Positions 5,251 through 54,549 of a DNA stretch of 64,000 nt are shown one piece after another. Position numbers and translations under genes: made by a program. Positions within the stretch are counted from its first letter, which is position 1; each line of letters opens with the position of its first letter. The notes beneath the pieces are model-generated. The model had not been told where the DNA came from. It saw nothing but the letters and a program-made list of their open reading frames with translations, and searched no databases. The DNA is taken from the NCBI GenBank assembly GCA_002633005.1, contig NMRA01000790.1:36835-100834 (forward strand). The letters are read 5' to 3'. The stretch comes from Phoronis australis. Its lineage: Eukaryota > Animalia > Phoronida.

Positions 5251-6108
5251 GATTTTTAAAAATATTCCCATTCTTACAAATTAATAAGATGTTCCCCGGC
5301 ACAGCAGTCACGATATTCTGCCGACAGATCAAGACTGGGTTAAACAGCCTATACATGTAGCAGTTACGTAAATAGCAATGGTAGTTAAATTTCAGAAGAC
5401 TGGAAATGACTTCTTTATTAAAGACATACTTATGCAGTTTTACAATTGTAAAATGAAGAACCCGTTTATTAGGCAATTATGTGAATGAAGCTCTTATTTC
5501 AAAAATAGAATGGAAGGAAGGGCTGGAAGTGGGAGACAGGATGTTGTGGAAGTGGTAACACGCCATTGTTTAAGAATACTGTCTGATGCTGCAATAAAAC
5601 AGAATCTGTATCAAAGGGTGGTCGATGAAATAATTAGTTTCTATGTTTTTTGGGTGTACGTCGTTGTTGTACTGTGGCGGCAAAGTCAATTGAATTTAAG
5701 CGATTAACGTGTTTCTCAGACTGGAATCGCAAAATACACAGAAGGACCTCCTTTTCCACAACAATACATTCTTTCCTTTTTCATTCTTGTTTTTGGTTTC
5801 GTCCCCGTTAGTATGTACACCCTAATTTTAGCAGTCAGTAACCCCTGTTGAAGAAAGTTTTTTGTTTAGAGGGCATTTGATAATGGATTTTTACAACAAG
5901 AATTGTTAAAGAAAACCTAGAACTTGCAGACTGGATTTTTAGAATATTTTTCCTAACTTACAGTGTGTTATTGCGATGTTGGCGCAGAAATCATGTAATT
6001 ACCGTGAGCTAATATCTGTAAATGCAGCACACTCAGCAACGTCCATTAAAATGACTCCTTATTGATTGTAGATCACCCTGACTTGAGCACCTATTTTGTA
6101 ATTCACAG

Positions 6109-6216
6109 CGCGGTCGTACCCCACTTTTCGAAGCAGCAGGAGCAAGCCTTTATTTCACTGAACCCAACATGAAGTTGCTGCTAGAGCACAAAGCCAACGT
6201 GAATGCAGTGAATAAG
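6109..6216 (+). CDS. Ankyrin-repeat exon A1 (RGRTPLFEAAGASLYFTEPNMKLLLEHKANVNAVNK)
   Basis: ttcacag| acceptor, aag|gtagga donor, 108 nt, phase 0-0; matches the ankyrin consensus G.TPL..AA....KLLL...ANVNA. Confidence 0.85.
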
Positions 6217-9200
6217 GTAGGAAACAGTGGTGTGACAGGATTCAAAGTAAAAATGACATACCAGTCTGTTATTTTGATCGATACTTTTTGTTGACGCCTA
6301 TTATTTCAGGACGTTTGATGTTGTGTACAGTGTAGCGTGCCTTTGTAATTAATGTTGGGAGCATTAACATATTACGCCGTGAGTTGAGGGGGATGAATTT
6401 TGGAAAAGTTGACGATTTTTGAATGAAGGAGGTGGGAGGTTAAATTTATGGTGATGTCATCATGTGGTTTATTAGAACATCTCCATCACAGTACATATGG
6501 TTGGAAAACTGGTACACCTGTAGCAGAATCTGTCAATTTTTCGAAACCTACTGTTTCAAGCTTCAAAAAGTTGGTTATTTTTCACTAGGCTTATCTTATA
6601 AACACAGACAAACGGCAGTTTTACTTCATCACTGCCTATCACTGAGAATATTCATAGTGATGAAAAGCATAAGAGCTGGATTAGTTCTTCCAGCATCAGA
6701 CGCGTTCATGTTTTTCGGGTGATGCGATGTACATTGTGACTTTGTTATGCATATACATGTATGCAATGTTACGACAAAATATAATGTATTTCGTTATTCC
6801 ATTATATGACAGAGTTTTTACTGCGCTCTCACGCTATTCCTCAAGTTTCATTGTTTAATGCCAAGTTTGCTCCACTGATGGCTGCTTCAGTTGAGACTGG
6901 GTTGAGAGTAACAGAAGACGATAGTGTTGTAGCATAGTATTGGCGACATATAAAGAGTTGTTATGAATGATCAACAGTAATATTTCACATTTAATAACAT
7001 TTCGCATTAATTGGAAGTTTCGGACCCAATGAATCTTTACACTGGACTTACTACATGTATTGGTCCAAGACCTTAAATTTCAAACAAGTTGTTAAAGTTG
7101 TAATGCTCAAAGGTTATAATTTTGTGTCATAGTGGAACATTCACTATTTGTATTTTTAACTTGATGAAGTGTAAATGAATTCATAGTGAGGTTTCTTGTG
7201 CAAACAATCCCATGAGTGGTCAACAAAGTTAAACTGCGGTTACTCGGACGTTCCAGGACCACCTTCGGGAGAACATAATGTTGATCTTTTTAGCACATAC
7301 TCTTTGTACGCTATGAACTGTATGTTAGGGATTAGAGAGTGGTTTGCATTTCGACTAGACCAGGGATCCGAGTCTTGCATGCTATCGGCGTGAATGCGAG
7401 CTTCAGCATTAAGTACTGTGTAAGTTCCTAACAACTTTTGAATATTGTATAATCACTATTTTATTCTGCTATTTCTACACATTTTATCATGCTGTTGTTT
7501 CCATGTGGTTAGAGGGTGACCTGAGTGAGTGTAACTTGATTTGACGGTCAGTAGAACACTTGGCAACCAACCGCACTGCATCTTACTTGGTACTGTCACG
7601 CACGGGCAGATGACGATACTTTGTTCGTACACCTGTCAACTTCGACACCTTTGCATTTAATTTAATTGCTAAAACTCGCGTTTCGGGAAAACACGTTTCA
7701 TTGATTTGTGTAAAATCAATGGAAGCTGATTAAAAGTCCACCATCACCACCACCACCACCACCAATGTCCACCGTCATCATTATCACCATCATCATCACA
7801 TCATCAACATCACCGTCATCATCACCATCGCCAACATCATCATCGTCATCATCATGATCATCATCATCATCACATCATCAACATCACCGTCATGATCACC
7901 ATCATCATCATCATCATCATAATCATCATTATCATCATCATCACCGTCATCATCATAATCATCATTATCATCATCATCACCGTCATCATCATAATCATCA
8001 TCATCATCATAATTATGATCTTCATCATCGTCATCACAATCATTATTACCATCATCATCACCACCATCATCATAATCATCATCATCATCATCACCATCAT
8101 CACCACAACACCATCACCGCCCTCACCATCACCATCATCATCATCAGCACCATCATCAATGTATTTTAGGCCGTTGCTTTATTGCCACAAGGCTTCGCTA
8201 ATGCGTTGATTCCTATTTCCATGTTTTGCATGACATCGTTTAGATATTTTGGACCTATTCAAATAACTCTGAAATGGCAAAATTAAAAGCAATAAACATT
8301 TATATTAGTTCAAGTTTTTGTAGCGGGGCAATCCTTGGAGGACATAGGAAATTATCACCTGGCTATAATGTACATGGTCGATATTGATACTTCATAACTC
8401 AGCTGGGGCATACAATAGTACAATTATCACTTTTGATACATGTACATAAGAGCACTAACACAAACTAAATCATTTGAGTCCCTTTGCTTAGGAGCTCCCA
8501 GAATGTTTAGAGATTTTGTGGTATGTAAACCACTGCATAATTTGGAGGTTCAAAATCTAGTATCAATCCAGATATCAGTCTAGGTTTTTATAAAGGGAAA
8601 AATTTCTGTACAGTGTAAGCTCATTTAATTTTCCACACGAAAATCAATTTCAGAACCCCAGTAGTTCAAAAGATCACCACTTCTTAGTCCACAAAATATC
8701 AATTTATTTTAGGCTGTTGCTTAATTGCCACAAATCTTCGTTAATTGCTATTTTCATGTTTAGGGTGACATTGTTTTGACATTTTGGACGTATTCAAATA
8801 AATCTGAAATGCCAAAATTAGAAGCAGTAAGCATTTAACATTATTTGAAGTTAAACGCTGCAATCGGCGAAGCGCTGTCTACAAAACACCAGGTCGATAT
8901 TTATACTTCTCAGCTTCGCTGGGGCATACAGTGGGCGCAACTATGGTCAACGTACACTGGATTAACTCAAACGCATATTTTTGTGATCTTTTCACATGCC
9001 AAAATGCCACGTCGTTACCGGAATGTGAAATAATCCAAGCACTGCAGTTTCTTTAAGTGCGTGATGTGGTGGGGTCCTCCAATTGATGAAATAGCGAACA
9101 ATACATCTCAGCATTTTCGATTGCCTGTGCTGCACTGGGACCATCCTCATCAGAGTTTGAGCTGCATGCTCTGCCCTTCTGTTGTGAAATGCTCTACCTA

Positions 9201-12200
9201 TCTTTCCGACCTTTTGTTGAAGTTAGTGCGCAGCCCATTGCACAATAAAAGTCACTCCATCGTTGGATACCTGATTGCATTTTTTCACAATGGGAAATCA
9301 ATGGATGAATATAAATACCTTAAAGTGATGTGCATAACATTTTCTTTGTTCCGCTGGGCACAGCTTGTTCTGAACCCAGTCTAAGCAAGAGATGATTGTG
9401 GAGAGGATAAAGGAGATTTGGAGAAAGTCTTTTACTGCTTTACATTCATTAAAATCATAACTAATGATTAACATGATTTCTACAGCCAAGCCCAATGTAA
9501 ATTGGGAATTATATTTGAAACAGGCGTGATCACTACAATAATGATTGATCGAAAGCCCCCTCGACCCCTGGAAGCCCGCACACCAAAACCCACTGGCACA
9601 CACCTCTATCCACGACGCTCTTGACCCCCTACCCGCAACCCCCTCCACCCAGTCTACAGAAACTCAACTTGATCTAAATATAGAACAAGCGCTAACTTGC
9701 AGTACGAACTAGTTTGGCTGTGAGCAAGGCTAGTTTTTTCCTGTTTTTCAAACTGAGAGAGTTGATTCGTTAAGTTTTTAAGCCAAAAACAGAAAAAAAA
9801 CAACGGTATCAAATCAAATCAAATCAGAGACCTACTGTACCAACATTACATATCGTATCGTTCCGGGCAGGGTGTAATCGTCTCGTCTGCTCTTCGGAGA
9901 ATTCCAGATTCAAGCTATTTTTGGACATGTGTAATAGGATCACGAATACTTATTTTTTTCAGTTTGAAAAAATATGAAGTGGACTAAAAAGCAATCCAGA
10001 GGTATTTTTAGTATTTTGTTAAGGAGTATACTTCACAAAAATATAATGAAAATGACAAACTATGTGTATACACGTTATTATGCTCTCTCCCTAAATTCAG
10101 TGCAACATGGTCTATAGTAGTCACTGTGGAACTATTTCCCAGGCAGCCTGGAAGCTTTATGAAAACTGTCGTCAAAATACAGCTAGATTGTGTGCTGAGC
10201 CCCCTTAGATCCCGAAATTTCATACAGCCCGGGTAGTTCTCGTCAGCTCGTTCTTAAAGTTAAATCGACACATAAATCTAACGACCGGCGGGGGTGCTTG
10301 CAAAATCAAGAAGTCAACCGATACTCCTCTTTGTCGGTGAAGCCGTCTTCAAGTGAAATACAGCTTTGCACCAAACATAACTACTTCCGTGACAACGACA
10401 GTGAACTCACAATCCGCCATTTCTTACGCCACTTTCTGTCTTTACCACCAGTCTAGAGCCAGAGCAGATTTGTGTAGCCAAGTCTTATGCTAAAGTCACC
10501 CAATGGCGATGTATCAAAATTAGGAAATGTGAAGAAAGAGTAAGCATACCTCAATCTCAGCAGGCCGTGGGGTCAAAGGGGTTGTTGGTCATGGTTCATG
10601 GGGTTGTGGAATGTGGAGGTCGAGGGGTGTTGCAATAATCCGCATAATGTCCTAGGTGCCACTTTGGATCTGGCAACTATGAATACTACGTACTTACTCT
10701 TTTAGATTACAATCGACACTTAGTAACCTAGTGTCAGAGATTTTATTACCAGCTTCTTTGAGTTTGGGGAGAAGGGAGCGAAGATAGGGGGCAATGATAA
10801 TCGCTTCGAATTAGCAGCAGTGATTTTTAAGATACTACTCATTTTATTTGTCGCTTAACGTTGACCCTCTTCATTGTTTGAATGGCAAATTTAGTTAACA
10901 ACAAAAGAAGAAAAGGGACATAGGACCCATTGCAACTACTGTCTATTTGTTGAGAGACCTCAACTGCTATTGGATAGCCTGCTTGAGCAACACAATTGAA
11001 CAAAATGACTTGCGTGCACCATTCCTTACCATAGTGGCTTTAATATCCCCGATAATGAAGCAAGAAGTGAACTTCTAGAATCACCTTGATTTTTGCAGAA
11101 GATGAAAAACGAATTGTGCGAAACATCTATAGACGATCAAATTAAACAAATGTATAGTGAATCAAATAAGTCACGGGAATAATTAGTGAAAGAAACGCAC
11201 TGTGAGCCAAAACGATATGTCAGTGGAAAGAATAATTTGACACTCAATATTTTAAGAAAACTGTTTGTTAATACTATTTAATAAAAGATTGGTTTAATGG
11301 GAAGTCAACGCAAATATCCTGTATGAAGTCATGGCGGATTCAGAAAAAAAACACATACCATCGTTGACAGAATTTCACCCTGAATGCAATGTTGGTGAAG
11401 GTTTCGAGTGAAAATGAACCGGCAGTGCTACTGTGCTCATATATATTCAGTTGTTTAAAAACATGGTAAATATCCAATACAAGGCAAAATTCATCAAGTG
11501 AAGACCTTACACTGTATGTATCATTTCCCATTCCCATTATGTGTTTTCTCTCATTGCATGAAACATACCTGCTTTTGATATTCTAAAATTGCTGCTTTCG
11601 GTATGCAAAAACGTGACATTTTCTTCATAAACATTGAAAGCCTATCCATAAGTCCAAAGCGGTTACTTGTGTATGAGAGTCACACTAAGGTCACATACAC
11701 AAAGTTTTAAGCTGAGTCTGAAAGATGACCTCTAGAGATATGTTCTTATTTCTTTTCATTTTCTCGGGAAATAGTCCTTAATAGATAATTTCTGTAGATA
11801 CATATAGTGACTACCACATGTAGGCCTACATGTAGTATGCTTACCGCATGCTGATGATATTGCAGATATTGCAAGTGCACCAAGACAGTTATAACAACGA
11901 AAAAATTGATGAAACGAAATTATGAGGTTCAGAAACTGGGATCCTCTAGAGAGCGTTAAAAGTTGTCACATAATCTCTAAATTGTTTTTAAGATGAGCTC
12001 GAAACAGCAACCTGGGGGACTCATGCTCAACATTTTTTAGGGGCCCAGCATATAGTGAATAATATCGAAGAGTTTCTCTCTATACTAAAATTATGTGCTT
12101 TGCAAAAATGAGAGACAGAGGGAGAGGTAGAGGGAGAGGAAGAAGGAAAGGGAGATATTTGTACTTGCAAGAGAACTTCTTTCAAGCAAGTCTAATTCAA

Positions 12201-15200
12201 CGATAAGCAAATATTTTCTTGATTTGCCGCGCAACACGTCTAGTCCCGCTGTCTAATTCGCACATGAGACTTCCAAAACTCATAACACCAAGTGGAGACA
12301 ACTTCGATTCATAGGTATTAATGTGTGTAACGTTAAGTAAGTATGGATATGTATCGTATATATGTATATAACCCCTTCACAGAGGACCAACATACAGCAG
12401 AGTGAAATACATACACAAAACGTACCGAGAGTGGCATAGATGAATTCTTTGCGGACATTATTCTGCTTATCAAGCGACACAAAACGAAATGAACAAACTT
12501 GACATTTCCTCGGTTTTTAGGCACTTGCATTTACCCATTCAACTATAAAAACCGCTGTCGGGCGATTAGGGCACCTTTCATTCAACAAAAAACGCTATCT
12601 GTACATGTTTGTGTTTTGCAGGGAACATTTCATCTTTAAGAGTGACTCCATATAAAAACCAACAGCTAGAGTCTATATCCAAAATGACAGATTTTTTTAA
12701 ACTTAGCACATTAGTTTGGTTTGTTAAGATGTAGAAAAACCTTACTTTTTAGAATATTCATTTATTATTTCTCTTTTGATGACCTGTAACTACATTTTGC
12801 GTCAAAATTTAGCGTCGAAGTAGGCGTGTTTGAATGCATTTTACTAAGGCGTATGGTAAGGTCAACACAATTGATTGATGCGAATTGAAAGGGTAATGGG
12901 TGAATAATTTAATGGCATAACTTTCAAAATCCATTTTTAAATATGTATGTCTTGATTTTGTAAGGCAAAAATGGCTATGTTGCAGGTTTTCGCTGAAGCC
13001 AGTTTCGGCCAAATTTGGAACTCTGTAGCAGCCATAACGCACCTTTCCAGAAATTGACCTTATAATAATTTGTTCAGTCATTCCTAACCTGTTCATAATC
13101 TAAAATAAAAAATCTTGCCTCTACAGTAGTTTGTGCCTACGAAGCATTACAATCTGTCCTATTTGCATGTTCTCAGTTGTCTCTGCAACCGATAGAGGGC
13201 TCTTGGAACATATAATTAGCTTGCAAAACACGACAGAAAAACCTTGTATTTTGAAGAAAAGGCATACAGCATTACTAAATACCATTCACTGAAAACGACA
13301 TTGATGATTATTGCTTATTACAAAAATATGTACGTAAATCTACTGGCATGCGTGCTTCTTAATGATAGATGACACAGTAACACGAACCGTAACACGAGGA
13401 CCTTGCTTTAATTCAAGACTTCGCGAGATATTGCCCTGCATTTTAAATGTGAACACGTGGTTTTGGATAAATTTTAGAGAGGTTCTAGTGTTACTGAACT
13501 CATCGCTGCCTTACTCTTGTTTTCTATCTGCCTTGTTCAAGCCACAGGCAAAGGAAGGCACCCAAGCTGGATATGGCCCCCTGTTTAGAGCAAAAAATCC
13601 TTCAACTCGTCAATAGTCATTGTAACTTTGAGTTCATATTGTAATGTCCCTGCTGGTTGCTACAAATTTTAGTCGCCACCAGTCGCCATAAATCTGGTGT
13701 TCCCCCCACTCACCGGGCACGCTAACGCTCAATATTTCTGACATTGTCATCATCAGTGGTATAAAAAGGCTGAAACGTTCCCAGTCAATAGAAAATAATT
13801 CACGAGAGACAATTTTATTAATGACTCACTCATGACAGACACGAAGTAAACAGAAGTAACGGTCTCGACTTCATAGCAAACACACTGAGTGACTGACTCT
13901 GTGGCGTAGCAAGGGGTGGTCAGTGGGGCCCAAGGTGCTCGCTATGCCACTGGACTGTCTAGTGTAATTGCATCTCAACTGCAAACTATAATTAACTACG
14001 ATAATACATATAACATATGACGAGCACGGTAAAACTCAAATTTTGATAAAAACAAGCTACTATTAACATATCGATATCTCTGTTCCTCTTTCACTCTCAT
14101 AACTGCTTTTAATTCTGTACAGCCACATTTCCACCCTCGGCTACTAGGACACATTTTGCCCCTGACGTGGCCACCACAATTTCACAATAGACCAGCACCT
14201 GGCAATCCTCAACCACTGCCTCTCACCTAATTTGCACTCGGCCGCCACTGATTTCTGCCCCCTGATGCTACCCATTTGACTCAAGTTGCAACTTACACTT
14301 GTTTCGGCCATGGACCATTCTGTCTCTCACAACCAAACACTAAGGCCCTGGCCACTATTCATTTGGGCCTCAGCAGCCAGTCATTCAGCCCCTGGCCAGC
14401 ATCCATACTGACTTGAACTCTTCCTAGCTACCACTCATTCTCCTTCAGATGCCACCCACTTGTTTCAATTCATCCAAACCCTTATGATGTCGATATTTAT
14501 TTGTGTTTCTAACAGATCACTAATTGTTAAAATGATACCAATACCTAAGAATGAACACATCTTAAGATTTTTCATAACAAGATAATCCAACTAATAACTA
14601 AACTTCAACTTTTGTGCACTCTCAAGCACAGCTACAGACACGTGACAATATATGTACTTCCACTTTTAACTTTCCTGCCCATTTGGTTAAAAAACTTTCG
14701 TAAAAGTATCCTATAAGTTATTACCATATAGTTACTTGAGCTGAGCTGTAGATATTGTCCATTTTATAATTCCGAGTTTTGTTCTAAATTCCCTCACTGA
14801 TCGATGCGAGTGAAACAAAATTAACAATCCAAAACTGCTACAAACCAGCTGCTGACCTTCACCAACCAGTCATAATTACCAGCAACTACACAAGACAAAG
14901 AAAGCACCAATTTCAAGAGCTTCCCATATCTTTGACTGGTTGTTATGCTACAAAACTAGGCTAAACGTTGAGCTCATTTACCACTTCATTCAGTAAATCT
15001 GACGACGTAACAGCATCTTCAGCAGAAATAGAATCATCACCAGCATTGCTGCAGACAACCTCAAAAATCCACCAATTTGCTATTCACTAAACATCACAGG
15101 TAAACATTTTCCCAGTGGGTTTTCGTAATGTTTTCTCCATTTTGGCACTTCCGAGGGTGAACGTTTTTATCTGACTTATCTCCTTCATCGAATATGTTCG

Positions 15201-18200
15201 TCATTCGTCTCATCCACACTGTACTCTGAGGCTGCGTCAATTGACGCTCCGGTTCTTGTATCTGAAAGCATTTCTGACCACTGTCGTGCGATGTGGTCAT
15301 ACGTGGTATTCCTCAGTAAATGTTCGGTGTGGTTATCTAATTCTGCGTCTGTAGCAAAAAAATCGACCAACCTTGCTGGGTACAAGGGAACTTTTGTTGA
15401 GGCTCTTCACTAGATGCAATGCCAACCTTAACTCTTCGTGTTGAAAACCCGCCATGTCTAGAGATGTGTATTTTAGAAAAATAGGTTTCCCATTTTCTCA
15501 GTATTTGTAAGAAATTACCGTCACCTACATGGAATGATTTCCACACGCAAATTCCTTGGGTGGAATAGTGGGAATTGGGGAATGTGCTTATACCAGGAAC
15601 TGAGTGTTTCGGAAAAGACTTTGTTGCATTGACTGAATATGCATACACATACATGTAACATCCCTTCACACGGCCACTGGAAAGTAATGCATCTTTCAAA
15701 TCCAGAAAGTTTATGATATTGTTATCTTCGGCTACAAAGTACTTCGCATGTTGTTTGAGTGGAGCAGTCTTGCGATCACAGAGATTCTTTCCATTCTGAC
15801 TGTCACTAAAGTCATATCTCGAAACAGAAATGCCGGTAGAATGTGACAAGGCAGGAGGAGAGGATCAGAGTGGTAACATCCAGCATAACCTGACTCTTCC
15901 ATCACTGGTCCTGTTCAATCAGAAATTCACCGACTCGGGGTAGTACGAATCCGTACTCTGGCACAGGCCTTGCTTTGTGAGGTACTTTCCTGTATTTCAA
16001 ATGTTCAGTGGTGTCTTTGACATGACTCACTAAAGCCCAAAGCTTTTGTGATAGTATTTTTTGCAGAATAAACTCTAAAGGGACATGAAGTTTGTTCAAA
16101 TGGTCTGTAAACTCTGCTCGTCATTTCCAAACCATTAAAATAAACAGTTTTGCAAGACAATTTTCACTAAAGTGTAAACTTGAGGCAAGATTTTTTATTG
16201 CTCAGTCATCAAGACTAACTCTTTAACTGTATGTTCTAAACGTCCCATAAGGCTACAAGGTGTTTTATGGCATTAAGAAGGTCACAAAAACGGCCACTAA
16301 ATTAGCCCCAAAATGTGGTTTGGGGATTATCTCCCCTGTCTAGCACAACTCTCAGATTTTAATAAATGGCACAAAATTATGCAAGGTATACGTTGGTTAT
16401 TTCAGCCACCAAAATATAGTTTTTGATCTATTTTGTATGTTACTCAATTTTGTTGCTGAAAACAATACGATTTTTGAGACGGCTAATATGCCCAATTGTG
16501 CCACTTTGTGTTCTCATGCTCCAACGGCGAAATTAGGGGTTATTGAGTGCACAGAAATTGGCATTTGGGTTTTTGTTAGGATGCCTACCCATGTACAAAA
16601 ATTAAATTGTTTTGCATTTTGACTTATAGACTGATTTTTGAAAATCTACTGTTTTTTATATGGACTGCCTCTTAACTGATTTGGCTTGGACCCAGATGTC
16701 CAGCTTTGTACCCTCATGACCTGCTTTTAATCCAATTGTCCCGTGCTTTCGTTCTTGAACGTTGACCGTGACAGCTACGCAATAGGTGTCCAAAATAAAA
16801 ATGTCTCTTGTAATAAATATTGTTTTCAAGAGTCCACTTTCTTTAGTACATTGCAATCAAAAAATTAAGTTTTGTTCCACTGGGTCTTGTTTACGCTAGC
16901 ATGCACTACATACATCAGGATCAAAAACATATATTTTCTGATGGAATTAGTTGATTTCTAAGCTTTTTTGAAATACCTGCACTACAAATAGCGTGATGAT
17001 TTATTCACATTACACGTACCTTTCAAAACTACGTGATGGATTCCGCACACTTTCTGTTGTTTAGAAATACTTTAATTCCAAATTCAGGATAGAATCTTGC
17101 AACAGATTATGGTATTTTTCGTAAATATTACTGCATTAAGAATATAATATGGTGTCAAACCGCTCCAAAATGCAATTAGTTATAACATATTAACATGTAT
17201 AATTTTGGATGAATGCCTGACTAAATCATCCATAGCAATGTGACGGATTTATTTTCTTAATCGCTTGTGTTTGTAGGGTAGACATCTTTTGAATCAGGTG
17301 TAATGGCTTTGCTGTTTATTTTTATAAGACCTTTCTGGTTTATTTCCAATTTTATGTTAATATTTCTCGCTGCTATTTTTCATATTTTGGCAACACTCTT
17401 GGTTTTTAGAAATAATAAAAAATAATTTAGTCTCGTACTCAAAATGATAATTTATGAATTAATTTTTGCTTCTGGTATAATCGTCAAAAATGACTATGGG
17501 CTTTCTTGTGATGTGGCAATTTGGTTGAAAAATGATGGAGTTGCAAAAAGTTTTAATGCCACACACAGGAGCAAAGGAATGCAAACAACTCTCACGCAGG
17601 CGCAGCGTGCAACCTCAGCGGCTGTGAGATTGGGGTTGGCATTTCAGGGAAAATTTTCTTTGTATTGCAGTAGCACTATTATAGCAGATTTGATTTTAAC
17701 ATTTGCGTCTAACCGATGCGTGGGCGTTGGTGACCCTGCCTGTCCAAAAAAACAGGATTTTTCGCTAGTAAATAACCATTTGTATGAAATGTATTCATTT
17801 AGTGGTCCCAGTTAAACAAACGTGCTTTTGATACAATAACGATCTAAGTCCCATTGGATGCATGACGCATTATGCCCTACAAGGCATTTTTGAACTGGCA
17901 ACTATAAATATTTCTTTCCCTAATTGGATTACAATCGACACAGTGTCAGGATTTTAATTTTCAACTTCTTTTCTTGAATTATTTTCATTGCTTGAATGGC
18001 AAAATTCATTCGACTACAACACATTGCAACTACTGTATGTTGAGAGGCCTCAACCTCTACTGGTTAACCTTCTTGAGCAACACAATTGGGCAACTTGACT
18101 TACATATACATGTAAGTGGACGTCCAATTACCAGAATGATTTTTATACCCTCTCAGAAAACAGTGAAATTTAGTAGAGCTGGGCTATTGGTAGCCACTTG

Positions 18201-27200: not shown

Positions 27201-29128
27201 ATAAAGAAATTGAAAAAGTAATCACTTGTCAAAACAATTGTAAGTGGCCGTGGAGCACTTTAAAGAGACTGGGCCATCTCCTGTACCTCAATCCAAGTCG
27301 TTTTTATTTCCATTCTTTTCCTGCACGCGACACAGCTTGTCCCAGCTGGAAAGACTGTTTGGAAAGAAAGGTTTCGAAGCACATAATGAACACTGGCAAT
27401 TTATAATGAACATTCACTCTGATCTAAAACGCATACTACACGAGACATAGTCAGGCTTTGTTTGAGTATTCAACCGAAACTAATCTTCAACACGAAGGCT
27501 GTTCCTTTTGTAATACTAACAGAGGTTTGCCGAATATTTTGAAGTTGTTCCAAAATTGGAAATCAGATATATAAATTGTGATTTTCCAACCGTGAGGTAC
27601 AATAGTTCTAGTCAATGTGAAATTCCTACTTTAGACGAGTTTCCATTTGACTTTTCATGTGTATTATGAAACGCGTTTTCTGCAAGTATGTCTCCCGTAT
27701 ATTTCAAAATATTTTACCGCACTATAATATACCGTTCGATGGAATACTAACAACTGTTGCAGTCAACGGTTACTGCATGCGTAAGAAGTCGAATTTAACG
27801 TTAGACACATTCAACTTAAAAAAACAACCGTTAAATATTTCTCTCATTGTTTCGAGATCACTTGTATTTGATGCTATACAAACCTTTCATGCTGCACAAA
27901 CGGAAGTTGTTATAGTGAACTGGTTCAAGTACTTATTCACCTCTTTCACGAACGCGGGGCGCTGCTGTCGTGTTGATCGAAAACGAGGCGCCTTGACAAA
28001 CATGGCANAGTTCTTCCAGCGTCAGACGCGTTCATGTTTTTCAGGTGATGGGATGTCCATTGTGAGCTTGTTATGCATATATATGTATGCAGTGTTACGA
28101 CAAAATATAATGTGTTTCGTTATTCCGTTACATGAGTTTTTTACTGTGCTCTCACTAGTCCTCAAGTTTCATTGTTTAATGCCAAGTTTGCTCACCTGAT
28201 GGCTGCTTCAGTGGAGACTGGGTTGAGAGTAACAGAAGACAATAGTGTTTTAGTATAGTATTTGCGACATAGAAAGAGTTGTTATAAATGATCAACAGTA
28301 ATATTTCACATATAATAACATTTCGCATTAATTGGAAATTTCGGTCACAATGGATCTTAACATATGCGTTACTATTGGTCCAAAGCCTCAAAGTTCAAAC
28401 AAGCTGTTCAAGTTGAAATGCTCAAAACCATAATTTTGCGTCATAGTGGAACATTCACTAGTTGTATTTTTAACCTGATTAAGAGTAAATGAATTCATAG
28501 TGGGTTTTCTTGAGCAAACAATCCTATGTGTGGTCAATAAAGTTAAACTGCTGTTATTCGGACGCTGCAGGACCACCTTCGGCATATAATGTTGACCTTT
28601 TTAGCATATACTCTTTATACACTATGAAGTGTACATGTATGTTAGAGAATAGGGAGCGGTTTGTATTTCGACTTGACCAAGGATCCGAGTCTTGCATGCT
28701 ATCAGCGTGAATGCAAGCCTCGGCATTAAGTACTGTGTATGTTCCTAACAACTTTTGAATATTGAATATTCACTATTTCATTCTGCTATTTCTAAACATT
28801 TTATCATGCTGTTTGTTTCCATGTGGTTAAAGGGTGACCTGAGTGAGTGTTGTAATGTAACTTGATTATAATGTCAGTGGACCACTGGGCAACCCATAGC
28901 ACTGCATCTTACTTAGTATTGTCACGCACGGGCAGTTGACGATACTTTGTTCGTACACCTGTCAACTTACAAATCTTTGCATTTAATTTATTTGCTAAAA
29001 CTCGCGTTTCAGGAAAGCACGTTTCATTAATGTGTGTAAAATCAGTGGAAGCTTATTAAAAGTCCACCATCACCACCACCAATGTCCATCATCATCATTA
29101 TCATCATCATCACATTATCAACAGCACC

Positions 29129-29160
<32 letters not shown>

Positions 29161-32100: not shown

Positions 32101-35100
32101 TGACAGCGACATACTTCCCCCACAACTCTACTTTTACTTGGCATAACAATGAATAAAAATGATCAGGACTCTTAAAGTAATTGTAGAAACTCAAGTAATT
32201 CACTCATCAGAGTGCGAGTGTTGACAAACAACATCGGCCTTTTCATTGTGGTTGTACCTTTACTGGAGATTTCATTTGAGCTAATTGCAGTAAATTACAA
32301 TATGTTTTACACTAAGTCTTGACTGCAATCTAATGAACTGCAGCGTTTGGAATGCACTGACAGAGAATGTGTTCCAAGGTATAGGTTGTATTATGCTCAA
32401 TGACTTAAGCCTGAAAAAATTCCTCTTTACTAAAAGCCATCTGTCAGTATCAAAATGACTGAACAACATGTGCTAATAAAGTATTTATTTGTCGACATGA
32501 CCCGTAAACGAGTAGGTTACATTTTATCCAAGAATGTTATGTTCATTACACGTATGCATACTGCCTCAGGTCAACCCTCATCACTGTCTTCGCGTTCCTC
32601 AGAAATTTGATTTAGTGAATTGTCACTAGGCACAATCTAGATGTAGATGTACAGGCAAGCCCATTCTTTGTGCAACTGCAAAGAGGCATGCTACCAGCTG
32701 TAGAACAGCTGCAGTGTATCATCTAGAGGAGAGTCTGGTGCAGCAATCGTGGCAGTTATGATGTGTACGAATTGATTGTATTCAAGTTTCCAACCCCAGT
32801 CTAAAGGATTCCGGTCATTTGCTATCTCCATCCAACACATGACCTGGTAGTACACTCGAGACAATGAAACCTGGTGTCTGATTCCGTTGGTGGAAGACGT
32901 TTGGTATTAGCGAAAGACATAGCAGCAACAAGCTTCTTTGTGAATATGTTGTAATGCACTACAAACCAAAGAACGCGNATTTGCCCCCACTACCATTCAG
33001 ACATTGCGCTTGGGTTGCGAATTTGTTACAACAAGAATGTTGTTGTAAGTAATTGATCATGATTTGTTGTGGATGTACCTTACATACCTTTGATATTAAG
33101 AAGTAAACAAACCGTGGCCGTTGGCGACGGCCTTTCCAAAACCAGAATTTTCATTAGAAAACAATCGTTTTGATAATGTTTCATTTATTAAAGTCATTTT
33201 TGTGAATTAAGTAAAGTTGAGCATAACATTAAGTGTCACTGTCCTCAAGAAAGTCAGGTTCCCCTTCCACAGACCGTCAGGGCAAAGGTTGTATAGTAAC
33301 AATGATTTGAATAATGTATTTGTATTTCTAAATAAAAATTCCCCTAACAAGTGACCATAGCATATATTGAAAAACCAAGATTTCCCTTGCCCAGCGTTAA
33401 TCAGGTGACCCCCAGGCCTAAACATCCGTGTATCGACCATTGTTTAAAGATGGCCAATTGCGGGTATCGTGTTTGCTTATCCCAACCCCTTGTTGCGGAG
33501 GAACCCAGTGGCGGATTTGGAGGGGAGCCAATACCCCCCTAAAATTCTCTTAGATTCCATTTGGCAGTTCGTGGGTGCGAAAGTCCGACGGGCAAACTCC
33601 TGTGTAACACATGGGGGCTCGGGGGGCTCATTCGAGCCCCCTCCTCTATTTGACCGAAGGGGCAAAAAGGTCCTTCTTAGAGAAACAAAAAGTCCGAGGA
33701 AACGAGAGAAAAGTCCACACGAATTCGTCGCCAATGCATAATGCACGGGGTTGAACCTATATTACCCCGCTTTTTAGTACTTGTCTTCTCGTTCCAGTAA
33801 ATGATCCACATGTCCGTGAAATTCGAGCCCCCCTCTATATTTTAGGCTGGGTGAGCGCATGTGATCCTTTGCCTTGGCCCCCCTAAATAAAAATTCTGGA
33901 TCCGCCCCTGTAACCGTTGAATAATGACGCGACGGGTTTTCACGGGCGTGAGGTCACATTAAATTTAGACACTGTGACAAAACTAGTCGGAATAATTTTT
34001 CCACTCGGTTTCGATGGAAAATTTTGTATTTTAAGTATAGGTCGGATGCGCAATTCTGTCGCACAGGTTTGATATTTTGTTTCCTATGCACTTTCCATTT
34101 TTTGTGCAAGTTTTGAGTCACAAAACAAAGAGCTCGTAAGCAAGCAGTGCAAATCCACAAAATTCCCAATATCAACTTAAAAATAAGTACAGATTTTGCA
34201 GGGATATGTTTGTTTTAATACAACAGAAGAAATCTGATTTTGGAATACTTATTGAGAAATGAGTTTTTAAAGCAGTATATATTTCATCAGAGAATAAATT
34301 ATTCACTTAGATGTACTGATTTTAATGGCTGGCGAGAAGGTTCTAGGATGTGATTTTTCAGAACAGGTAAAATACATATGGTTGTCATTGATACCAAATA
34401 TTTATTTAAGTACAATTAACAAAAAGCATCGTCATTGGATAGCAGCATATTCTGGTGAACAATTATCTTTTAATTGATCTTATATGATATCAATCACCAA
34501 GACTGATGTGGAAACAACGCATAATCACTCCGCTTAAACTATGGTGGCGGAACATAAAAAAATAGTGGCAGCACCTCTAAACTTCATGACCGAACCAAAA
34601 AACCCACGACTCAAAGGCAGGACCAAAAAACTTAACTCTTTGGCTGCAAGCATAACACTGAGAGCCCCCGATTTTCTGACTGATGCCGTAGGGCTCCCAG
34701 TGTTTTCCGCCATTTTTGTCCTATGTAACACTCTCCAATATGGCATCATATTGACAACGCGAGCTGTGTGTATCTTGAGAGGCGCGTGCCCGCTCTATTC
34801 GATGCCTATGCTTGTATCATTCACCATGAAAATGGCCAGAATGTTGTAATACGAACTGTAGGTTTTCACCCGCAACCAACGCTCTGCATTCGATCACTTT
34901 ATTGGACTCTATGAGATGACATTTGTAAGATAATGTCCACAGATGGCACTGACAACACTGCAGTAATGCACATAATGACTGATTAAATGCTCTTACAGTG
35001 CTAACAGTTGCAATGTTGTTAGTTGCAATATTTACGTATCTGCAGAGCAGAATTTTGCATTGACCCATGGTGTTTGGTTCTGCAGTGTTGGTTTTGGAGG

Positions 35101-38100
35101 AAGCAGTTGGAATCTTTGATGGTTTGAATCAACCCCAAAGCCAAATGTTTGTTCTGAGCAAAAACGGTCTTTGTCGAATTTCTTAACAAAAATCGTCAGA
35201 TTCACTGTGTTCCAAGGTATAGGTTGTATTATGCTCAATGACTTAAGCCTGAAAAAATTCCCCTTTACTAAAAGCCATCTGTCAGTATCAAAATGACTGA
35301 ACAACAGGTGCTAATAAAGTATTTATTTGTCGACATGACCCGTTAACGAGTAGGTTACATTTTATCCAACAATGTTATGTTCATTACACGTATGCATACT
35401 GCCTCAGGTCAACCCTCATCACTGTCTTCGCGTTCCTCAGAAATTTGATTTAGTGAATTGTCACTAGGCACAATCTAGATGTAGATGTACAGGCAAGCCC
35501 ATTCTTTGTGCAACTGCAGAGGCATGCTACCAGCTGTAGAACAGCTGCAGTGTATCATCTAGAGGAGAGTCTGGTGCAGCAATCATGGCAGTTATGATGT
35601 GTACGAATTGATTGTATTCAAGTTTCCAACCCCAGTCTAAAGGATTCCGGTCATTTGCTATCTCCATCCAACACATGACCTGGTAGTACACTCGAGACAA
35701 TGAAACCTGGTGTCTGATTCCGTTGGTGGAAGACGTTTGGTATTAGCGAAAGACATAGCAGCAACAAGCTGCTTTGTGAATATGTTGTTATGCACTACAA
35801 ACCAAAGATCACGTGCTCTCTATACCACACATTACACGCATCGCTTGGCTGCCTAATTTCTTTCAGCGAGGCTCACACCTTTCGTAGTGAATGTATCTGC
35901 GCTTGACTGGAGGACTTGGTCATCTTTCACGGGTTTCCAAGAGACTGAAGTCTTTCCAACGCCACCTACATGAGAAGTTAAGTTGCATACTGTAAAGGAG
36001 GGTAGAAATAGTAGCTGGGTACAAAATTTAATCCTGAGTACACACCTCATGCAATTGATGTCGTATATTTTCAGATTGGTTCTTGACTGGTAGCCAGATC
36101 TGAAAAATGGCATTTTCCCGTCATCCATTCAGTAATGCAGCATAAGCATCAACAAGACAGTGTCCTCGCCGATTACTGTGTCGGAATGCATATTATACTG
36201 TTTACTTCTGTCTTTGCAATGTCCACATCAGCGTCCCATACCAAAAAAGGCCTTCCTGCAAACACTTGCCGCAAGCTTGCCGCAAACATGCAGCAAACTT
36301 TTACCATGCAAATGAAGTTTGCCGCAAGCTTGCAGCAAAACATCTCTATGTCCTTATATGGAACAGTTCCTACAACCCAGCCGCACATATTGCTGCAAGC
36401 TTGCCGCAAACATTTTCATGGGGTTATATAGAAGTGTCTGCGAACCACCAGAAAAAATATTGCTGCAAGACTACAACATACTTGAATACATAATTTTTAT
36501 TGCATGCCCGCGTGTTAAAGCAAGAAAATACACAATCAGCTGCACATTGGATTTAACATGATAATTTTCAATCTAATGTAAAATGACTAGAAATGGAAAC
36601 AAAATCACATGACAATGAATAACAGAAACTATAAAAGTGTCTACTGTGGCAATTAATAATAATACTTGTAAATACAATCACAATTGTGTCTTGAGAGAAG
36701 AACTTGAATGTATGCAAGCTTTAATTACAGTATACCGAGATGTTTTATTCTTAACGCACGACAAAATCTATAATTGCAACAACGATATTATTTACTTGAC
36801 TAAACTAACAACAGCAACACAGAGCATTGAAATGCACCCAACGGGGTGTTTATTAGCATTGAAACTGGCGCAAAATATGTCGAGTGCCAGACGAGTGGAG
36901 AAAACCATGAAATCTGACTTTCCCCCGTGGAAAGGCATGCTTAGAACAGCATGTCGAGCATATTTAAGCATTTTATTTTAAATTACTTCATTATTTGTCA
37001 ACTGAAAAAATCCCTCTTAACAATTATAAACATATTTATTTTTCCCATATTCATCTAAAATACTTGAAAACTGTCGAATACTTCATCGATTACTATTTTT
37101 GCTTCCCAATATGGTTTCATGATCATCATTCTACTGAATGGGCTATCATTGAATTTGTAGGCCTTTGTTGAAATTTGCAATATTTCGACTATAGCGATAT
37201 CATCCAATAACATCATTCATTTATCTAAGGCATCAAACATAAATTATACCTTTCCATTCTACAATATTACTATGGTGTTGAAAAGAACAACTACAGACTG
37301 AGGTTATATCCAGTTATAACCATACTAGTGGACGTTCTAAACACATTTTAGTCCAGACTAATCTGCATTACAGCAATCGGAGGTGTTCCATAGGGTTCGT
37401 ATGGGATGATCGCTAGTGTTTTCATCCATGTTTGTTCGAACCAACTTTGAGATGCTGTGTACGCCATTTATTCCGGTGTTTTCAACTCAAACTTCTTGCC
37501 TCGTAACCTCTGCAGTGTCTCTGGCTTTCATCAAGTACATTATGTCACTCAATATTCACAAACCTAAAATATGAATGCCATTTCACTTTCCACAAAAAAG
37601 GCATTTGTGATAGCATTATTAGAATCTCAATTACAAGTCAAACTTTTGCTCTTCTGCTCATGTATGAACAGACAGTTGAACTACAATGTGTTAGTTTGAC
37701 TGCAGACTAAGAACTGGCGTATGACTGAAGGTGATGGCAGTTAAAACACCTACCAGTAGTTAAATATACAATATGCTAATCTTATTTTGTGCCCAATAGT
37801 TACCTCATTTAACCAAAATGAAAATTTGTTGTTCCTATAGTGAATCAAACAGTCAGAGAGCGATGTGAAAATTGACACAAACTTAAGTTTTACAGTCTCA
37901 GTTAAGTGATTATTTTGAAACACTGGTAACATTTCACTTGACAACGTTTTGGAAACTAGTTGATTCTGGTCTCAACCCCAGTTAACTCATTTGAAATCTG
38001 TGCTGTACTTTTCCCTAACCATTATAACCTCCAATTTGGCTGAATCAGTATGAAAAGCAACATCCTTTTGTTTGTAAGACCAAAACTACTAATTCATGAA

Positions 38101-41100
38101 TGAAGTCTAAGTAGTTTTACTTAACAATCACATCAATATAAATACAATTTTAAATTCAAAACTCACATCCATACAGTTCTTCAGTTATCCATGTAGAGCC
38201 TAGGCTGTACCAAAACCGTTTGAATTTGTTTCAAATGAAAGCTTATAGGTCACTTCCCAGGCATGTAACCTTGACAACCACATGCTTTCCTTGATAACAG
38301 TCCCACCAGATCAGCATGTGGCTGGGCTAGCATAATTTAAATAAACAATCAACAGCCCTAGAGGCATTAAACATATTAATCTATTCCAAGAGGCATTCCT
38401 TGAAAACATTCCTAGCAGTTCAACATGTAGCTGTGCTAGAATGATTAAAATGAACAATAACCCTAGAAGCATAAAACAATAATATAAGGACACTAGCGAA
38501 ATTAAATTTCTTATTTTTTATAAATAATGTGGCAGTACCAAAAGAATCCCGAGTCATATCCAAGTCCGTACCATAGCTGCTGACAGGCAATATTTTGAAA
38601 ATTGTGAGTCTTCACAACAATGCTAAATGTCCTTGAAAAATCAAAATTTTTGGCAATTATTTTTGTCCGAAATAGACAAAATTTTACTGTAGCTACAGTG
38701 GCAGCTACCACCTGATTATGAGATAATTTCAAATGTTGGAAAAGTACAAATTGCTCTAAATGCTAATACTTGCACATTTGGTAAAACTGGATCATATATT
38801 TGTGTATGGTTTGTATTGATATTTATTATGTTTGTTTACACAACATGCAGGTAACACTGCCTTTGTTGTTTTAAAGCAATTGCATTTACACTGTAATATT
38901 TTGCTGTACTGACTGACAGCAATATGAAAGTAAAATAAAAACTTGTTAAGTATAGTGACTGAATAAAAAACAAAGAACATACAAATGCAGTTATATTCTC
39001 TAGTGTTTTAGGTCGCATTTGGTCATCTTTGAGCATATGCTGTTTTTAACAATGTAACTTACCCAACAATACATGTAGGTCACATTTAGGTAAGTAATCT
39101 AAAATAAGTAACTGCCCTGCTTAGGTTCTGGGATTTGAGGCTTCTTTGAAATTTAGAAAATAAAAAACAATTTCACAATTTCTAACATTGTCACAATATT
39201 AATGCTAATACTTTAAACATTGAAGTTTACTGCAAATTTCGTGCAAGCACTTTTTCACCTATTCCTGAGAACACTTTTCACCAATAAAGTTTCCTGCAAC
39301 TTTCCCGCAAACATTTTTTTACCAATAAAGTTTCCTGCAACTTTCCCGCAAACATTTTTTCACCAATAACGTTCCCTGCAACTTTCCCGCAAGCACTTTT
39401 AAACAATAAAGTTTCCTGCAACTTTACCGCCAACGCTTTTCAACAATAAAGTTTCCTGCAACTTTCCCGCAAACACTTTTTCAATCACCAAGTTTGCCGC
39501 AACATTCCTGCAAACTTCAGGTTGCGGCAATGTGTGCGGCTGAGTTGCGGGTAGCGGCAAACTCCTGCAAACTTTGCGGCTGGTTTGCTGCAAACAAAAT
39601 TGTTTGCCGCAAGCTTGCGGCATGTTTGCTGCAAGCTTGCGGCAAACATGGTCTTTTGGTAGGGGTTACCCTTCTGCCTAAACGGCTGTGCATCCCAATT
39701 TCTGCAGCTGAAAACCCATATTCAACCCGCGTTGAATACGGAAGAGTAGTTCTTCCATATCAAATCTCACAATACAACCCGTATTTCATGTCCATATTAT
39801 CACGCGCATAGGATAAGTATGTATATGTATATGTACATGTATATGTATCGTATATATGTATATAACCCCTTCACAGAGGACCAACCTACAGCAGAGTGAA
39901 ATACATACATGTACACAAAACGTACCGAGAGTGGCATAGATGAAATTGTTGCGAGACATTAATCTCCTTATCAATAGACACCAAACTAAAAGACAAGCGG
40001 GACATTTTTAGGCACTTGAATTGACCCATTGAACTATAAAAACCGTTGTCGGGCATTTGGGCATCTTTCATTCAACAAAAACCGCAGTCTGTTCGTCTTT
40101 GTGTGTTTCACCTTCAAATGTTTTGGCTTAGACCGAGATGCCCAGCTTTTTATCCTCATGTACATGTACCGCTTTTGATTCAATTGTCCCGTTTTTGATT
40201 CTTGAACGTTGGCCGCCGTGACAGCTATGCAATAGGTGTCCAAAATAACAATGACTCTTTTAATAGGTATTATTGTTTTCCAGAAAGAAGCCAATTTCTT
40301 TAGAACAGTGCAATCAGAAAAATTAAATTTTGTTCCACTGTGTCTTGGTTACTATAACATATATTACATGCTTCAGGATCAAAAACTTTTATTTTCTGAA
40401 GGAAATAGTTGATGTCTATACTTTTCTGGAAAGACATGCACTGTAACTAGCATGAAGACTTATCCACAGTACATGTACATTTCAAAACTAAGTGATGTAT
40501 GCTGCACCTTTTCTATTGATTAGAAAACCTTTACTTCCAAATTTGAGATAGAAGCTTGGAGTAGCTTATCTTATTTTTGGTAAATATCACTCCTTAAAGA
40601 TTGTAATTGTCAAACCGCACCAAAATTCTAATTAATTATAATAAATAGCAATAATTTTGGAACAATGCCTGAAATATTTATCCATAATGAGTGTGAGAGA
40701 TTCGTATTTTTAATCCTGTGTTTTCATAGGGTAGAAATTTATGAATCAGTCGTAATGGTTTTACTGTTCATTTTTATAACACATTTCTGCTTAATTCCAA
40801 TTTTATGTCAATATTACACGCTGATATTTTTCATATTTTGGTAACACTCTTGGTTTTTAGAAACAATAAAAAATAAACTGAGTAGTTATGCAAAATAAAT
40901 TTTTTTTGCTTCTATTTTAGTCATCAAGAAATGACAATGGGCTTTTTGTGATATGACAATTCGGTTGAAAAACGACAGAGTCCAAAAAAGTTTTAAGTTC
41001 AGTAAATCCCATTAGTTCAGATGATGAAAGTTTTAGAGTTGCTTCCTGTTATTTTCCTGTAGGGTATTGAATCATAAAGTTTAGTGCATGCAACCCACAT

Positions 41101-44100
41101 ATTTGTGACTTGTATATAAATCCGTTCACTTGTCTAATAAAGACAGTCCTCATCTTGCTACTACCAGTTGCTTTACTAGTGTAATTGAGTGAACTACTCT
41201 GTTGTGTTTGCCATATATGGTAATGGTCAGCTGTCTTTAGGCTATGTTTCTGTGAATGACCATTACGCAATCTTGTTTACTACAGAGATCATCAAAACAT
41301 GTGTGGATGCACCGGATGGGTTGGTCGCTGACTCAGCTGACAGCCAAAACAAGTTTCTATAAACAAAAACAATTGTCTAGCAAAGATATAATATCAATAA
41401 GTAATAACACTATCAAACTAATGTGCTAAGGATTATATGCATCATGAATGTCACAGATTTCATGACAGTGTCAGTGACGTGAACGGCGGAGTATCGGCTG
41501 CTTTACACATTCATTGCTTATGTCATATTTGAAGAGTTTACATCGTAATTTATCATTGTATCAATCGTCCTTATTTTTTATTGTTTGCCACAGTGCTGTA
41601 AAAGGTTCGCTATGTCTTTTTGTATGGCATTAGCTGGTTGCTCAAACTCTTCGAAAAAGGCGTTTTCTAAAGGGATGGTCATCGCATACCATCGCCGGGT
41701 TACCCAAGCCTTGGCCCAAAGCTCAGTGTAGATATAGGCCTACAGGTTTAAGCCGATATGGGTAAAAAATGTACAAATAAAATCTGACTCAAATAAATGT
41801 CATTAAAACTAAGTCATCCTTGAGTAAACCTAGGAAACAGGTTCCTAGAGTAAACTAACTTCTGTATTTACCGGTGTTGGAAATGTTAGCGATCGTTCAT
41901 CGGCTGGTGCTAGTAAAATTGTGATGTGTTTTCTTGAGTCGGCTTTTTGCGATTACGTCACCTGACCTTTACCAGTTTCTTTTCCCCCTGATTCTTTTAT
42001 CATGTGTTCGTCGCTGACGGTACCTAGATTGCGTACATGTTATAACAAATTATCGGAGCTTGTTTCATTTTGTTTCAAGTTTTTAGTATTTTTACACCAG
42101 CAAACCGAATTTTAGAACAACCTTGGTGCTGCGAAGCTGTTATGATGTCCCGAAAGACGTCTCAAATTTTTATGAAATGGCGCGTGCGCCGTGTCACGAG
42201 CGTGCTGTTCTTGAAACGGACAACACACTTCTTTGTTAAAAAGGCGGCAAATTATGCTACCAAAGGACGTTTATTTGATTGTTTTCCACTTAAACGGCTG
42301 CAACGAACAATGGAAGTGTCGGGTGACTATATCAGATTTTGCATGCGCCCCCGCCGGTCCGTTAGCTTTATATGTTGATGTAGCCTAAGTTTTACGACGA
42401 GGTGACGAGCATAACTGAGTCAACTATACCCGGGTAGTCAACGGCTGTCTGAAATTTCGGGGTTAACGGAGCTCAACACACAGTGGTACGATAGTCTTCA
42501 TACAGGTACAGTCGGTAACTTACCAACCCTTCAAGTTTACAGAGCTGCCGGAGTATTGGCTGACGACTGGCTGACTGGATGGCTAGAGTCCACATTGCCC
42601 TCGGCACCAGTTGCACCGGCAAAATTTCGTCTGAGGTATCACTTTGTGTTGCCTCGGCTCAAACAGGTATCCCTTGTGACCCGAAATATCACACTAAAAT
42701 TTCTTATTCCGACAATATAAAAAACGATACTTGATTGCACGCTAACACAGGACAGTGACTTTGCCCCCGCCAAATACGTTACGAGACTAAGCAGCGCTCC
42801 AAGCCGGTAATTTTTTGAGCTTTGTTAGAGAATATAAGTTTAATTGTTGGTGTTGAATTATTTGTGAAATTAATCAACAATTCAAAGAAAACTATCCAGA
42901 ATTTATTCAGAATAAAATACAGTTCCCTTTTAATGCTGGGAGTATTAACATATTACGTCATCAGTTGAGGGGGGTGAGTTTTGGAAAAGTTGACGACTTT
43001 TGAATGGGGTAGGTGGGAGGTTAAATTTATGGTGATGTCATCATGTGGTGTATTAGAACATCTCCATCACAGTACACAGGGTCGGGAAACTGGTTCACAT
43101 ATAGCAGAATAAGTCAATTTTTCGAAACCTAGTGTTTGAAGCATCAAAGATTTGATTATATTTCACTAAGCTTATCTTATAAACATGTGCACACTCTCAT
43201 ACATGTATTTTCGCCAAGCCTAGTGTGATCAGATATTTTACTTTCAGAAAATAAAAGTCTTATTCAGTTAAACTATGTAGTTTTGTAAACGATATCTGGA
43301 TAAGTACACGTACTAATCAACAAAGTTCTTTACAAGTCACTTGTTTCGCATACTGCTGGTGTTAATACTGTGGCATTGATGCGTTATCGAGTAAATAAAA
43401 CGACCCCAAAATTTATTGAGAATATCCCTTTCAACTATTTCCCTTAAAGTGGTTTAACCGAATTTGTCAAAAAACATCCATTGTTTTAGATGATTGACTG
43501 ACTATTTTAGCATTTCGATAAAATTCATATTTCAAATAATGTTATTTATGTCGAAAATGTTGTTTTTAGTGGGATTTTTTTGTTATTTTGGCATTTGATA
43601 ATAGCGTGCAACATACAATTATCACATTGATGTCACATTAAATAATTTGCAATTCCAATTTGTAAACATTGGCATTATTGAATTAAATCAAATGGGGATT
43701 TTGAATTGATTATAGACAAATTTGCTAATCCCGGATTGTTACCACCAACTACACCTAACTTGCAACCAAAAACAACATAATCGGCGTGCAAATTCTGAAC
43801 CTTTTCTGAAATATTCAAGGTATCCCTGATCCAAAACTAACATTGGCTACCTGATCAATTGTTCCTTTTGACATAGGTCCTCTATGCATCAGTGTGGCAA
43901 TGTGCCCCTCTGTGATCTTAGATATCATAGTTTGCTACTAATGAAGTGTACTAGGCAGTAGTAAGAGACAAGTTGAATTAGTTTCACAGATATTGAAACA
44001 GTAGCATACACTGCAAACAGAAGATAGTTTGGATTGCAAAATCCAGCCCATTAAAGCCATCCACAGAAAATAAGTGAGCACCGTTACTCCGTAGCTCATA

Positions 44101-54173: not shown

Positions 54174-54543
54174 AATTCAATCCGAGCGGTGGCTACTGTT
54201 AAGAGTACCCCGAAACTGTTGTGCTTAAATTTGTCCTTGCTGCAAACTATTTCGTCAATTGAGCATGTTGATCGGTTATTTGACAATCTTAAACAGTAAT
54301 CTCTGGCGAGATGACTATATTTACTGATTGCGAAATTATGGGCAAGCAATTTCATCATTTATGTATTATCTAGTCAGATTTTGGAGATGATTGAAGGTGT
54401 TCAGCCAGAGTTAGAGACTGACATTTAAAGTAAAATGCAGAAGCACAATTTTTCAAAAATGATGGAAGGCTTACGCTTTAATTCTACGGTTCCGAAGATT
54501 ACAGAACGTCTGTTTTTTGTGTCTTGATCGCGTGGTCACTTGC

Positions 54544-54549
54544 AATAAA
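54544..54549 (+). terminator. Putative polyadenylation signal
   Basis: AATAAA about 370 nt downstream of the stop, followed by a GT-rich region. Confidence 0.4.

Follow-up and report, generated by a model that had tools for sequence, protein, structure and literature searches.

A family of ankyrin-repeat exon cassettes, variable in a single loop, is likely spliced in series ahead of one FAM111-like protease to form a variable sensor-protease; taken as a complete reading, this stands in our judgement at about an even chance of being right. The main signal, which was missed in the preliminary description of this DNA, is the concentration of divergence in one exon loop. The idea put forward in that description, that variable repeat arrays are carried on a constant protease, gains support from sequencing reads, both through the depth of the cassettes and through the exon versions that the reads reveal.

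The window, by which we mean the whole stretch of 64,000 nucleotides that was analysed, consists of AT-rich eukaryotic DNA that is heavy in repeats and is interrupted by a 907-N gap at 25482-26388 and by single Ns at 28008, 31230, and 32978. One gene model, predicted on the plus strand, spans the window, within which no start exon was identified. Its eight predicted exons have compatible phases and together make one open frame of 495 aa:

6109-6216, plus strand: ankyrin exon A, 108 nt, 36 aa, phase 0-0, Pfam Ank 23.9 bits
23361-23474, plus strand: ankyrin exon B, 114 nt, 38 aa, phase 0-0, Pfam Ank 35.5 bits, with a variable loop at 23391-23430
45000-45098, plus strand: ankyrin exon C, 99 nt, canonical 33 aa, phase 0-0, Pfam Ank 31.2 bits, single-copy depth
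46159-46260, plus strand: candidate exon, phase 0-0, non-ankyrin, AAG/GT end, frame kept whether it is used or not
46792-46966, plus strand: candidate linker exon, phase 0-1, glutamine run, traces of RNA
48790-49032, plus strand: protease exon 1, phase 1-1, putative catalytic His motif
49368-49684, plus strand: protease exon 2, phase 1-0, putative catalytic Asp motif, top PDB match FAM111A
53844-54173 (stop), plus strand: protease exon 3, putative catalytic Ser motif, AATAAA at 54544

Exons A, B, and C all exceed the gathering cut-off of Pfam PF00023 (21.1 bits). The preliminary description held that every ankyrin exon is of phase 0-0 and ends in AAG/GT; this is true of all three (3/3), each of which encodes one repeat and begins after YAG, and since A and B share their ends by descent, only two of the cases are independent. 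The AAG/GT ending, which we take to be the usual donor consensus together with a conserved lysine, is also present on the non-ankyrin candidate exon at 46159-46260. One-repeat phase-0 exons are common in ankyrin genes, and we found nothing in the open-access literature on how frequent they are. An HMM of A, B, and C, run over 2884 six-frame segments of at least 15 aa, found no fourth ankyrin exon in the window (next E 0.28); the anatomy first proposed is therefore partly confirmed, being right but smaller than its title implied, with three ankyrin exons in the window. Compared with exon C, exon A has three additional residues, placed in the helix1-helix2 turn, and exon B differs from canonical ankyrin repeats by a 5-residue insertion between the helices, right after helix 1. 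Presumably these extra residues occupy positions that are randomised in designed ankyrin libraries. The introns around exon C have no homology to the A and B cassettes, save for a short old repeat fragment nearby. As a protein query, exon B recovered five generic ankyrin proteins that are 43-55% identical to it. The cassette motif was absent from the metagenome contigs searched, Rfam had no match anywhere in the window, and no NTPase was seen in the window.

Exons A and B lie within duplicated blocks, and all of the cassette fragments and second shared blocks are on the same strand:

5262-8930, plus strand: cassette unit A, exon-bearing block
22562-24853, plus strand: cassette unit B, exon-bearing block, 86.7% to unit A, multi-copy contig depth
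28009-29886, plus strand: exonless cassette fragment, its first 921 bp 97.3% identical to 23918-24853, beginning right after the single N at 28008
31622-32099, plus strand: exonless older intron fragment, 81-83% to other copies
42930-43185, plus strand: exonless fragment, 88.7% to 6349-6604, holding a high-copy repeat core
12343-12620 and 16674-17556, plus strand: second shared block of unit A, interrupted by a TTAA-flanked TIR element of 4 kb
39837-40996, plus strand: second shared block of unit B, 83-89% to the unit A block and colinear with it, multi-copy depth

In the self-comparison, 5262-7603 matched 22562-24853 at 86.7% identity (ungapped), and the reversed-sequence control gave no matches; the duplication of an exon with its intron context about 17 kb apart, as first described, is thus real and stands at 87% for A and B. 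The homology goes on, with 7604-8692 matching 28930-29886 at 91-93%, and two long units are present, each interrupted by different insertions. Partial copies had also been reported at 28009, 31630, and 42930, and all three exist on the same strand (the second as 31622-32099), but none holds an exon. The fragment at 28009 lies near the 907-N gap and is without the element inserted at 24854; its pattern fits either two haplotypes joined by the scaffolder or a truncated third unit, with the balance between the two about even. The second block, originally placed at 12330-17560 and 39815-40995, is found at 12343-17556 and 39837-40996, but its real homology spans only ~1.2 kb around the TIR element. 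We considered 39837-40996 as a dispersed repeat and dropped this assignment, because the block is colinear with its counterpart, is similarly diverged, and has a depth of 219-393 at three sites in its centre, like that of the cassette (its ends are higher-copy), all of which favour its being part of a duplicated unit.

Several other elements lie in or beside these units. At 2804-5254, abutting the start of cassette A, lies a satellite-like array whose units measure 140-365 bp and carry a short palindromic motif, and one inverted unit of this array is located at the window start (2-214). Degenerate trinucleotide runs of unequal length, at 7775-8158 and 29087-29359, occupy matching places in two cassette copies. 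The cassette intron includes, at 23696-23764, a 70-bp core that is high-copy elsewhere and is transcribed in both directions. The 4-kb TTAA-bounded TIR element extends from 12636 to 16675, and a short inverted copy of its ends is found at 31154-31390 with an N in its middle; a second TTAA-bounded TIR element, at 18643-20519, has an ORF with a THAP domain (Pfam E 1.9e-18), and we presume this element to be Kolobok-like. Colinear with the 42930 fragment is a short match of 73-92% between 9323-9477 and 44507-44643, perhaps decayed LINE pieces, a guess made from the translation. Finally, 32368-32972 and 35206-35808 form a 605-bp pair at 98.8% identity that ends just before the single N at 32978 and is probably an assembly overlap or haplotype.

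Read sets deposited under the same species label comprise four DNA runs of one sample and four RNA-type runs. The DNA run used here, X1, which matched best, is probably from the source sample of the assembly and hence not independent of it. Contigs from this run were aligned to 39700-54600 at 88% likeness and to 22500-24900 at 80% likeness. Over 39700-54600, which includes exon C and the protease, depth was 14.7-28.3 in the 8 listed of 5011 pieces, six of them with 0 differences, and the difference-free matches of these 3' contigs extended to as much as 2.3 kb. Over the cassette at 22500-24900, depth was 118-768 in 26 of 30 bins (median 371), the other 4 bins being left out because they lie over high-copy repeats; summed contig depth is not in itself a copy number, and the two regions are compared at different likeness (80 vs 88). 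Single cassette contigs, however, had depths of 118-158 with 1-17 differences; two of them, differing at 1 and 4 positions, reached 155 and 121, so the lower likeness threshold is not the sole source of the excess. At least 95% likeness to the cassette was found in 89 of 261 cassette contigs, repeats included. We therefore place the cassette at roughly 4-15 copies, compared with one for exon C and the protease, both of which look single-copy. Expansion of the cassettes beyond the copies in the window, on a protease that is apparently single, is accordingly upheld by a cassette contig depth ~4-15x that of exon C and the protease.

Variation among the copies is focused on the loop. The sole contig over exon B (23326-23722, depth 158, 17 letters different) is not B itself: among its differences, 9 of the 14 listed substitutions and all of the gaps (net +3, in frame) fall inside the 40 bp of 23391-23430, leaving at most 8 differences in the remaining 357 bp, and the flanking introns are ~98% alike. 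This clustering in the loop has a Fisher p of 6e-6 and a scan-corrected p of ~3e-4, with 40 of 275 difference rows listed; the contig could itself be an assembly path merged from several copies. RNA reads bear on the same loop. In X7, all four of four reads share several letters and insertions of this contig; in X5, nine reads carry another loop before 23428, which has no counterpart in the window with as many as 3 mismatches allowed and which, read by hand, stays open in the exon frame. The X6 reads are unlike both B and the contig at 23404 and 23418 (0/5 and 5/5), pointing to a possible fifth loop version. Altogether there are at least four loop versions, all with the frame kept, of which at least two are absent from the window and were found in DNA or RNA. 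That further exon versions exist, as a variable array would have it, is borne out by the contig, and the RNA reads indicate that they are expressed. Among the contigs and reads listed for 22500-24900, none carries the loop of exon B itself, and some of the loop versions may be alleles, the RNA being from other individuals.

The same focus is apparent when A is compared with B. These exons are 58% identical in protein and their introns differ by ~13%, yet the differences amount to 21/33 nt in codons 11-23 vs only 4/45 in the 3' half (codons 24-38, pN 0.057); the first ten codons differ at 7/30 positions (p 0.09), which is suggestive only. For the loop, pN is 0.63 and pS 0.65, values that come from two full exons with an unsafe loop alignment; at such near-equality, positive selection is not distinguishable from relaxed constraint or from replacement of tracts.

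The RNA evidence derives from three runs of one study, X5, X6, and X7, of each of which ~18-19% was read, and whose individuals differ from the DNA sample. Exon RNA is confined to one strand throughout, with maxima per site over the family exons of 23 (X5), 19 (X6), and 7 (X7), and the dominant exon version differs among the three samples. Coverage of the protease exons is ~0.3-16 per base, and that of exon C is 0 (X5), 2.3 (X6), and 0.7 (X7). A joint from 23479 back to 23428, found in three reads of X5 (2 starts) and two reads of X6 (1 start), puts two family exons in one molecule without an intron. Among the 15 of 131 joints listed, which are crowded by repeats, none connects A or B to C or the protease; exons B and C were aligned to the RNA in separate regions, and the predicted introns are 17.1 and 21.5 kb long.

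Four other explanations must be weighed against a series of cassettes in one gene. The strongest of these, which we consider a real though distinctly less probable contender, is that several ankyrin genes, with C-termini that are different or more diverged, share the cassettes among them; the gene in the window would then have only two or three ankyrin exons, or A and B would be part of a distinct gene lying upstream. The lack of a listed RNA joint to C or the protease is in keeping with this, as is RNA depth, which for the family is ~5-8 fold above that of exon C in X6 and X7, while in X5 exon C is empty and the family reaches 23 reads; this excess is, however, equally explained by several family exons per transcript. 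Protease paralogues less than 88% alike would have escaped the alignment, yet cassette copies are often at least 95% alike and no C or protease paralogue of that likeness was found; furthermore, A and B are arranged in tandem and in frame, with C on the same strand.

A second alternative, that cells skip or choose ankyrin exons so as to draw many isoforms from a fixed gene, appears unlikely. Skipping would keep the frame because all of the ankyrin exons are of phase 0-0, and the three RNA samples do differ in their dominant version, but genotype explains such differences between samples as well. The skipping or mutually exclusive use suggested at the outset was not seen in the thin RNA coverage: no skipping joint was found, and the only informative joint (5 reads) runs through two consecutive family exons, which argues against strict mutual exclusion for that pair.

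Still less probable is the proposal that haplotypes left uncollapsed, a caveat raised earlier, account for the duplications and that the loop versions represent allelic forms of one or two exons. It may hold for the copy at 28009, given its 97.3% likeness and its start at a single N, and it draws further on the 605-bp pair (98.8%) that ends near another single N and on the missing loop of exon B; it fails for A and B, which are 13% apart and carry different inserted elements. The 0 differences of the X1 3' contigs over up to 2.3 kb also count against it, and single contigs at 4-7x single-copy depth are impossible from two haplotypes. We had ourselves begun from the view that a single old duplication together with haplotypes explained the copies, and gave it up on the strength of the cassette read depth and exon versions. 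Least probable of all is capture and spread of the exon with its introns by a transposon, the loop then drifting without function: TIR elements and high-copy repeats abound here and the cassette is multi-copy, but the loop indels keep the frame, the 3' half is conserved as protein, the exon reads are spliced and on one strand, and self-comparisons revealed no terminal repeats of the cassette.

At the 3' end of the gene model, His, Asp, and Ser motifs, read by inspection, occur in order at 266, 320, and 422 of the predicted 495-aa frame. Protease exon 2 matched FAM111A (8s9k/8s9l) best in the PDB, at E 0.0067 and among five matches up to E 10, and its neighbours in Atlas are trypsin-like (0.86-0.91); exons 1 and 3, each searched singly against the PDB, had no match, and exon 1 alone scored 14.6 bits against Pfam Trypsin_2, below the cut-off of 27.6. 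Single-exon protein searches for protease homologues yielded no accepted candidate (0/107 and 0/29), and two HMMER matches to a protease exon were rejected as repetitive proteins without a protease family. FAM111-like is thus the best label for what appears to be a trypsin-like protease, not a statement of membership, as the likeness is weak and comes from one exon of three. Shared with FAM111A and FAM111B are the C-terminal position of the trypsin-like domain, the His-Asp-Ser order, and the best PDB match of exon 2, whereas vertebrate FAM111 carries UBL domains ahead of the protease and the match here is weak (E 0.007). Antiviral restriction has been reported for FAM111A, relatives lacking the UBL have been recorded in a soft coral and a lancelet, and FAM111 has been suggested to have begun as a restriction factor; the accessible text of this review has 0 mentions of ankyrins (PMC9798293). 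We found no fusion of ankyrin repeats with a FAM111-like protease in the open-access literature.

Given many cassettes and one 3' end, the simplest account is a tandem array in the same gene, and in the preferred reading, a loop-variable cassette series before one protease, most cassette copies would belong to a germline tandem array that is partly collapsed in the assembly or lies upstream. Unequal crossing-over or conversion between the similar introns would add and swap cassettes; unequal exchange can add, remove, or swap symmetric exons that are flanked by similar introns, with the frame kept (PMC3341825, PMC1553488). Across the copies, the repeat's scaffold half would be kept while the loop varies, possibly driven by diversifying selection. 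A protease preceded by a variable binding surface suggests, by analogy with algal and fungal arrays, ligand-gated proteolysis in defence, such that a ligand bound by the array might switch the protease on, and ankyrins have been proposed as invader sensors in marine invertebrates (PMC8195603). A bolder version, which we offer tentatively as possible but doubtful, envisages 5-15 tandem cassettes with hypervariable, length-variable loops swapped between near-identical introns on one FAM111-like protease. Such a polymorphic intracellular receptor would combine a loop-extended, DARPin-like library with an antiviral-type effector, its arrays differing between individuals and possibly isoforms.

Variable repeat-exon receptors have already been described in brown algae (PMC3341825) and fungi (PMC4986451). 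The ROCO LRR and NB-ARC-TPR genes of Ectocarpus likewise encode each repeat on its own phase-0 exon, couple a variable array to an enzymatic module, and have a proposed role in defence; their exon length is uniform, their introns contain inactivated or inverted exons, and selection has been assessed across hundreds of their exons (PMC3341825). Here, by contrast, the repeats are ankyrins, the module is a protease, and repeat lengths range over 33-39 aa through insertion in the loop; the exons are correspondingly unequal (108, 114, and 99 nt, the contig version being B plus 3), and the HMM revealed no inactivated or inverted ankyrin exons in introns on either strand of the window. The ankyrin arrays of Podospora anserina NLRs resemble the present family in that repeats vary in number and at binding-face sites, which is attributed to recombination between repeats; fungal NLR repeats are >85% alike and are located behind a NACHT or NB-ARC domain (PMC4986451). 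Repeat identity of the fungal type, >85% across 100 aa, is not seen here, as A and B are 58% identical in protein and the homology resides in the multi-kb introns that separate the exons. The nank genes of Tuber melanosporum also diversify ankyrin proteins through exon structure, though by alternative splicing of codon-sized microexons (PMC4986451) in place of the whole-repeat exons found here. Internal duplication of exon-bordered repeats by intronic recombination is a known route (PMC1553488) and ankyrin repeat number changes readily in animals (PMC5100051), while the accessible portions of these two sources describe no hypervariability focused on a loop with near-identical introns on either side.

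Should array and protease prove to be joined, the arrangement would provide a testable sensor-effector model for invertebrate defence and would bear on the suggestion that FAM111 was originally a restriction factor. It would also show that ankyrin diversity can arise by lengthening of the inter-helix turn, and short-read assemblies would conceal such arrays.

The intron after exon C contains, at 45172-46029, a high-copy element of ~850 bp with a 14-nt inverted pair. Antisense to the gene, its RNA depth climbs as high as 614; head-to-tail joints from 46029 back to 45183 occur in 127, 101, and 3 reads and in one DNA contig; this is a transcribed tandem or circular element.
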